64,000 nucleotides of DNA, taken from the NCBI GenBank assembly GCA_963676915.2, contig CAXXVK010000053.1, forward strand, positions 96,001 through 160,000, written 5' to 3'. This stretch comes from Myxococcota bacterium (GTDB taxonomy: Bacteria > Myxococcota_A > SURF-8 > G963663525). The notes under the pieces are model-generated. The model did not search any database, was not told the origin of the DNA, and was given only the letters and a program-made list of their open reading frames with translations. Of this stretch, positions 58,615-58,786 are shown piece by piece. Numbering within the stretch: position 1 is the stretch's first letter; each line of letters opens with the position of its first letter. A program made the translations under genes and the position numbers.

Positions 58615-58786
58615 GTTCACCCTTCCTTGCTCATGCGGGCTCATCGGTGTACAATGGCCCTAGCGACTGTTCGGGCTTCCCGGACAAAACGGGCGGCGGA
58701 TCCAGCTACACACGGGTTGAAAAACCCAAGGTCGGGACGATCTCGCCGCCCGATGCTCCCTGGGCGGCCGCCCAGGGAGCATCACC
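58615..58786 (-). ncRNA. Predicted bridge RNA (~170 nt): 5' stem-loop, target-binding loop, donor-binding loop
   Basis: 5' hairpin 58752-58783; target loop with LTG TCCCGACCT (58729-37) and RTG TGTAG (58706-10); donor loop with LDG ACAGTCGCT (58662-70) and RDG CAAG (58626-29) matching the junction ACAGTCG-CT-TG; exact RNA ends are estimates. Confidence 0.88.

Follow-up and report, generated by a model that had tools for sequence, protein, structure and literature searches.

An insertion sequence lies inside a gene in the stretch of Myxococcota DNA analysed here (the window, 64,000 nucleotides), and the locus raises the question of how this element chooses its sites and why this copy came to rest where it did. 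The initial annotation had proposed that the target loop of the element's bridge RNA is programmed for a REP repeat of the same genome, called REP-A, and that the resident copy occupies a near-cognate site. The genome surveyed is a 74-contig draft of 5.18 Mb. The reading reached as a whole, that of an IS621-like element whose guide is tuned to REP ends and whose copy in the window is an off-target insertion, is in our judgement very probably correct.

The element and its bridge RNA

The body of the insertion sequence is 1171 nt long (57664-58834, minus strand). Its ends were placed where the flanks diverge, and they are shared exactly by six full copies in the genome, which are 99.6-100% identical. 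The 2-nt core CT stands at both junctions in all six copies: on the minus strand of the window, the left CT (58835-58836) directly precedes TGTATGAT and the right CT (57662-57663) directly follows ...ACAGTCG. The recombinase gene (57679-58611, minus strand) encodes a protein of 310 aa that was recognized by its Pfam domains and by PDB sequence matches. It contains DEDD_Tnp_IS110 (PF01548; 4.7e-26; 91.9 bits, cut-off 29) and Transposase_20 (PF02371; 5.6e-18), and the closest solved structures in a PDB sequence search were the ISCro4 transposase (8.1e-36) and the IS621 transposase (2.5e-30). The recombinase motif rdSG aligned to yeSG of ISCro4, and we take its serine to be the catalytic serine. 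Four of the six copies have kept this ORF whole, and those on contigs C22 and C72 carry frameshifts in it. All the membership features tested were found, and the element belongs to the IS110 family (IS110 group), within which it resembles IS621.

The left end of the element, upstream of the recombinase gene, consists of 223 nt of non-coding sequence (58834-58612), and the right end is short, extending 15 nt past the recombinase stop codon. A -35-like TTGACT was read at the right end (57677-57682, minus strand) and a -10-like TATGAT at the left end (58827-58832, minus strand). Joined ends would put TTGACT 17 nt upstream of TATGAT, and the same geometry was found in the related elements of three other genomes (G003, G005, and G007). 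The two hexamers could thus be the halves of a promoter (TTGACT-17 nt-TATGAT) that forms at the junction of a putative circular intermediate.

The 223-nt left end is laid out as a bridge RNA, with a 5' hairpin, a target loop, and a donor loop, and the RNA is presumably transcribed from this end. The 5' stem-loop is a perfect 16-bp hairpin (58752-58783, minus strand) read from the sequence, and in the relatives its place is taken by a hairpin with another sequence. The target-binding loop and its closing stem span 58691-58751 (minus strand), with GGGCGGCG (58751-58744) pairing with CGCCGCCC (58698-58691). RNAalifold, run on the window element together with four homologous elements of other genomes, retains the closing stem: of its 13 pairs, 12 are present in every one of the five sequences, and a single sequence lacks the outermost pair (columns 88/153). 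Among the substitutions are GC to GU and GC to AU.

Within the target loop, an inner hairpin lies between the left target guide (LTG), which is TCCCGACCU or, as DNA, TCCCGACCT (58729-58737, minus strand), and the right target guide (RTG), which is (U)GUAG, complementary to CT-AC(A) (58706-58710, minus strand). The LTG is identical to the left flank xCCCGAC-CT in five of the six copies and covaries with the target among relatives; CT-AC is found on the right in all six copies, and GTAG is invariant in the five homologues. Read from the letters of the loop, the two guides spell TCCCGAC-CT-ACA, just as the initial annotation had it. The nine letters that it had given for the LTG are right as well, and the guide is 8 nt long in effect, since at almost all natural sites its position 1 (U) has no pairing partner. 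The working part is CCCGAC + CU.

The left donor guide (LDG), ACAGUCGCU (58662-58670, minus strand), is the same as the element's own right end followed by the core, ACAGTCG-CT (57670-57662), with ACAGTCGCT agreeing at nine of nine positions. This guide is invariant in the homologues, whose right ends are also ACAGTCG. The right donor guide (RDG) was assigned for its four core-proximal nucleotides only: CAAG (58626-58629, minus strand) is complementary to CT-TG, is conserved in the five homologues, and overlaps the ribosome-binding site, and by analogy with IS621 it is probably the core-proximal part of the RDG. The left ends of the elements in G005, G007, and G009 carry, about 17-25 nt from the end, a segment (A/G)GCGA(C/T)TGT that is complementary to the LDG ACAGTCGCT. 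RNAalifold pairs this segment with the LDG (alignment columns 18-27 with 172-181), more weakly in the window element, and it could represent either an inverted repeat in subterminal position or a helix that masks the guide.

An Rfam search of the bridge-RNA region (evalue mode) returned no family at threshold. The sole match that came close to significance, to the Xanthomonas sRNA sX15 (58615-58761, plus strand), is antisense to the bridge RNA and reached 30.2 bits, short of the gathering score of 55 (E = 0.009), and was discarded; the sX15 family may itself have arisen from the UTR of an IS110-type element. Also rejected as a bridge RNA was CGGCGAGATCGT at window position 14855, a chance motif within coding sequence.

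Occupied sites, REP hairpins, and the guides of relatives

The bridge RNAs of the six full copies are identical, and the first ~225 nt of the copies are without difference. The flanks read GCCCGAC-CT[IS]CT-ACGG in C37, GCCCGAC-CT[IS]CT-ACAT in C22, ACCCGAC-CT[IS]CT-ACAT in C19, ACCCGAC-CT[IS]CT-ACCC in C43, GCCCGAC-CT[IS]CT-ACCT in C72, and AACGGAC-CT[IS]CT-ACAG in the window. Five of the six full copies are therefore inserted exactly at xCCCGAC-CT^AC, where a REP hairpin ends on its 3' side, and the window copy is the sole exception; the fraction 5/6 overstates the raw specificity, since selection against genic insertions must raise the share of copies found at REPs. The left target in the five cognate copies is the 3' arm of the hairpin (e.g., GTCGGGCTAAAAATTAGCCCGAC), and their right flanks are all different, so that these copies occupy separate loci. 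The initial annotation had expected other copies to be enriched at CCCGAC^CTAC, and this is what the survey found: with 138 CCCGAC-CT-AC sites among 491,263 CT cores, the binomial probability of at least five of six copies falling at such sites is ~1e-17. Per site, occupancy is 5/138 for perfect sites, 0/174 for sites with one mismatch (a class that includes 26 TCCGAC-repeat sites), and 1/739 for sites with two mismatches. LTG position 1 (U) matches the target in none of the six copies of this genome, and the fifth RTG base does so in three of the six. As both positions are usually unpaired, the effective address of the element is CCCGAC-CT-AC (6+2+2 nt).

A truncated copy on contig C58 and a decayed 60-nt left-end remnant (C60:183797-183856) also abut REP ends. 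The truncated copy (C58:100-480) consists of the last 343 nt of the insertion sequence only, with the 8-mer CTACTTGC on both sides and a GCCCGAC-CT REP end directly upstream; candidate origins of this fragment, locus L028, are deletion, aberrant recombination, or misassembly. Another locus (L061; C27:18618-18741) is a decayed bridge-RNA-like relic that scored 62 bits with a covariance model of the bridge RNA. The relic has lost the right target guide, and no recombinase gene was found directly downstream of it.

The landing pads are abundant. The genome contains CCCGACCTAC 133 times over its 5.18 Mb, where base composition predicts 11.5, and the string is preceded by G in 92 cases, by A in 39, by T in one, and by C in one. 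Of the 133, 127 are hairpin ends, with a GTCGGG arm no more than 32 nt upstream. Extragenic location was judged by a long-ORF proxy, and by this measure 29 of the 133 sites lie inside ORFs of at least 150 aa, compared with 88.8% of genome positions. With both strands counted, 794 CCCGAC sites stand behind a GTCGGG arm, which corresponds to roughly 400 hairpins, and many of the REP units form inverted pairs of the type GTAGGTCGGGC..GCCCGAC-spacer-GTCGGGC..GCCCGACCTAC.

Three unoccupied cognate sites lie in the window itself, each at the end of a REP hairpin: ACCCGAC-CT-AC at 10793-10803 (plus strand; DNA hairpin z = -4.75) and the sites at 26502-26512 (plus strand; z = -3.29) and 43230-43240 (minus strand). 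All three had been quoted by the initial annotation as REP-A ends, and all three indeed read ACCCGACCTAC, the 3' end of a GTCGGGTGA(A/T)(A/T)TCACCCGAC hairpin. The claim that the guide is matched to REP-A holds as far as REP targeting goes, and is too narrow as to the subtype: the address is common to several REP subtypes, and three of the five occupied REP sites are of the GCCCGAC subtype. From its genomic neighbours, the REP family appears to be RAYT-associated, with the candidate RAYTs scored with a general Y1 model only. A Y1_Tnp ORF (C62:108723-109082; 30 bits, PF01797) is preceded by a GTCGGGTGATTTCACCCGAC hairpin and followed by GTCGAGTGAAATCACCCGAC, and the hairpins of this RAYT-like region (C62:108565-109250) are of the REP subtype GTCGGGTGA..TCACCCGAC. 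A second Y1_Tnp ORF at C1:39363 (region C1:39100-39900; 30 bits, PF01797) lies between GTCGGACAG..CTGTCCGAC hairpins.

Of the other nine genomes of the order, four contain homologous elements. The eight copies in G003 have the LTG TCCCGACCT and all lie at xCCCGAC-CT, followed by AC in seven and by TC in one; five of them are in hairpins and three are at sites without an obvious hairpin. The eight copies in G005 have the LTG TCCCATCCT and all lie at GCCCATC-CT-AC, in GATGGGC..GCCCATC hairpins (GATGGGCAACAAGTTGCCCATC). LTG position 1 is matched (by T) in one of the eight G003 copies and in none of the eight G005 copies, and the fifth RTG base is matched in none of the copies of either genome. 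The single copy in G009 has the LTG TCCCATCCT and the target GCCCATC-CT, and the single copy in G007 has the LTG TTCCGACCT and the target GATCGAC-CT-AC, a two-mismatch site. The guide changes in the relatives thus amount to 1-2 nt (CCCAUC, UCCGAC), and the rest of the guide segment (GAGATCGT...CCT, GTAG) is invariant. Some of the G003 and G005 copies have flank sequence in common, and for that reason the copies are not all independent events.

The corresponding repeats were counted in the same genomes. CCCATCCTAC is enriched in G005 (17 versus a control of 5) and in G009 (41 versus 5). CCCGACCTAC is enriched in G001 (122 versus 25), a genome of the same genus in which only remnants of the element remain, and no enrichment of CCCGACCTAC was found in G003 (13 versus a control of 37). 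Two loci of G001 (L012 and L006) and one of G007 (L024) are solo left- or right-end remnants or a target-loop fragment beside REP ends. Together with the remnant on C60, these sequences suggest that earlier insertions have decayed, some of them in the same-genus genome, where no full copy is left.

A covariance model built from the five homologues was searched over the order (10 genomes) and a 151-genome sample of the phylum, where its gain was limited to the C27 relic and two distant elements (G052 and G075). Of 30 loci scanned in a wider genome collection, the model matched 19, and the guide was sought in the upstream flank of the 11 that have an AGATCGT anchor. In six of these 11 the guide was found with no more than one mismatch, in five of them plausibly at a left junction, a count that is illustrative only, and in the other five no guide match was found within 260 nt upstream. 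In some distant relatives from other phyla (~45-50% protein identity) the LTG equals the left flank at hairpin ends, for example, in L110 and L109; in L110, the LTG TCCCACCCT is found behind GGTGGGCAC..GTGCCCACC-CT.

An association with REPs could in principle arise without any programming by the guide, if insertion were random or weakly specific and intergenic copies were the ones to survive. Cognate sites lie mostly outside long ORFs, so purifying selection would favour such copies, and the sole genic copy looks young, one SNP away from another copy. Intergenic DNA nevertheless makes up about a tenth of the genome, yet the five REP-sited copies lie at an identical 10-nt string, base-exact, and the guide varies along with the target in G005, G009, and G007. 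Survival bias predicts neither the covariation nor the exact site, and we consider this explanation very improbable.

The insertion in the window

In the window, the left target used is AACGGAC (58837-58843, minus strand) and the right target used is ACA (57659-57661, minus strand), both read from the flanks. The count made in the initial annotation, in which AACGGAC-CT-ACA matches six of nine LTG positions and five of five RTG positions, was reproduced. Against the working guide, the site matches at C, GAC, CT, and AC(A), and its two mismatches to CCCGAC fall at working positions 1 and 3. No hairpin was found at the left flank of this site (z = -0.03, versus -4.75 and -3.29 for two of the REPs of the window). 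With two distal LTG mismatches and a bridge RNA identical to that of the cognate copies, the description of the window copy as a natural off-target insertion that reveals mismatch tolerance was upheld. The accompanying proposal that the core-proximal GACCTACA is enough for insertion was not: this string occurs 100 times in the genome, and of its non-REP instances a single one is occupied. GACCTACA permits rare insertions and is insufficient as an address.

The copy was also said to lie inside a gene, and this proved right. The 5' part of the interrupted membrane-protein gene (57480-57663, plus strand) and its 3' part (58837-59285, plus strand) join in frame when the element and one CT are removed, giving a hydrophobic protein of 210 aa for which no Pfam family was found. 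Another genome, G006, has an intact 210-aa ORF with 82% amino acid identity over the 148 aa compared, and it is continuous exactly across the insertion point; because of this intact ortholog, the window copy interrupts a real gene. The window copy differs from the C37 copy by a single base, which gives it S89 in place of the L89 of the other five copies. Given this one-base difference and the fact that both halves of the gene are still open, the insertion looks recent.

The surroundings of the gene hold other mobile and repeated sequences. Immediately upstream lies an IS200-like element of ~600 bp (56759-57360) with a Y1_Tnp ORF of 150 aa (56824-57276, minus strand; 144 bits versus PF01797), of which the genome has three near-identical copies, one on C43 and two on C53. 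A second dispersed repeat of ~50-80 nt, a hairpin of the GGAGCA..TGCTCC type, is present on both sides of the interrupted gene (57397-57447 and 59305-59356). About 20 more partial copies of it were found by blastn, and the genome has 33 GGAGCAGGAT..ATCCTGCTCC hairpins.

Two other origins of the window copy were weighed. It might be an assembly chimera or a copy brought in by homologous recombination, a suspicion that the draft state of the genome in 74 contigs and the odd structure of the truncated copy on C58 could feed. However, the CT core is present at both junctions, excision of the element together with one CT brings the reading frame back precisely at the codon across which the G006 ortholog runs on unbroken, and no REP or other repeat at the junctions of the window copy offers a place for homologous exchange, all of which leaves this origin highly unlikely. 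Steering of the insertion by the donor-binding loop, at a site that half-matches the element's own ends, has a precedent in programmed IS621 bridge RNAs, for which half-matches (LD or RD only) are given as about half of the non-target insertion reads (bioRxiv 10.64898/2026.08.31.748434), but it was rejected on the sequence and is hardly credible here, since AACGGAC-CT-ACAGC agrees with LD ACAGTCG at 2/7 positions and with RD TGTAT at 0/5, against a match to the target guide at GAC-CT-ACA and one more C.

We therefore return to the reading of an IS621-like element that is directed to REP ends by its target loop and that went astray in the window. In the mechanism proposed, the LTG would base-pair to the CCCGAC-CT bottom strand and the RTG to the CT-AC top strand, and the donor loop would pair with the joined ends of the element, ACAGTCG-CT-TG. 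Strand exchange by the recombinase at the CT core would then place the element between CT and AC, with CT on both sides. CCCGAC-CT-AC would serve as an address through being the 3' end of abundant, mostly intergenic REP hairpins, and most insertions would be harmless because the address is mostly intergenic. In the window, the same target loop would have led the element to a site with two distal LTG mismatches and no hairpin, where it would have split a conserved gene for a 210-aa membrane protein. We infer from the sequences that the element is currently active.

A broader model can be drawn from the relatives, and we give it about even chances. One IS621-like lineage in the order would alter no more than one or two LTG bases (CCCGAC, CCCAUC, UCCGAC), with the target loop unvaried in all other respects, and in each host use the RAYT-spread REPs as its landing pad, and the window copy would record that the REP stem-loop is dispensable, with three core-proximal left-target bases and CT-AC being all that is strictly needed. 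If this is true, one selfish element tracks the repeats sown by another.

Comparison with known systems

The targeting of REPs by IS110 bridge RNAs and the tolerance of mismatches in the distal part of the guide are already published, and the window element may be among the thousands of natural IS110 guides and targets tabulated with the bridge-RNA papers. What this locus and its relatives add is a natural data set on bridge-RNA targeting outside the model hosts, comprising 24 full copies in five genomes and three guide variants with matching targets. The set holds two natural two-mismatch insertions, one in the window and one in G007, of which one disrupts a gene. It could also be a source of compact orthologous recombinase/guide pairs whose natural off-target behaviour is known.

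The best match among solved structures was the ISCro4 transposase (PDB 9t56; 8.1e-36, residues 3-301 aligned), a comparison of the proteins only. The comparison with IS621 of Escherichia coli (Durrant et al. 2024, PMC11208160) extends to the RNA. According to the parts of that paper available to us, IS110 elements insert into REPs, and their natural guides and targets differ by 0-2 mismatches in most cases; the natural target of IS621, ATCAGGCCTAC, is one position off the guide-encoded ATCGGGCCTAC, and its RTG is 4 bp long. IS621 and the window element share the two recombinase domains and a left-end bridge RNA with target and donor loops, a CT core, a 4-bp RTG (GUAG), and a target that terminates in C-CT-AC where a REP hairpin stops on its 3' side, with 0-2 guide mismatches. 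They differ in the LTG (ATCGGGC in IS621, CCCGAC here), in the REP family, and in the host. In addition, the similarity of the recombinases is moderate only (109 bits), and LTG position 1 is habitually unpaired in the window element.

The second comparison is with ISPpu10 and ISPpu9 of Pseudomonas putida. All or nearly all copies of these elements are likewise in REPs, and the left target is again the 3' arm of a GC-rich stem-loop. In the sections of the ISPpu10 preprint that we could draw on (bioRxiv 10.64898/2026.03.19.712850), the REP stem-loop 5' of the core boosts insertion and is dispensable, and insertion at a site without a stem-loop is predicted to be possible, with activity lowered to ~44%. 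The same source gives a tolerance map of the ISPpu10 LTG in which positions 1 and 4 tolerate any mismatch, positions 2 and 3 do so in part, and the core-adjacent position is intolerant. The off-target site in the window, which departs from the guide at working positions 1 and 3 and agrees with it throughout positions 4-6, fits this map. The two cases differ in that the window copy is a natural genomic insertion at a site without a stem-loop, of which those sections report none for ISPpu10, and in that the window element is known from its sequence alone. The natural insertions described here agree with the tolerance map of ISPpu10 and with the 4-bp RTG of IS621, and they leave the known mechanism unchanged.
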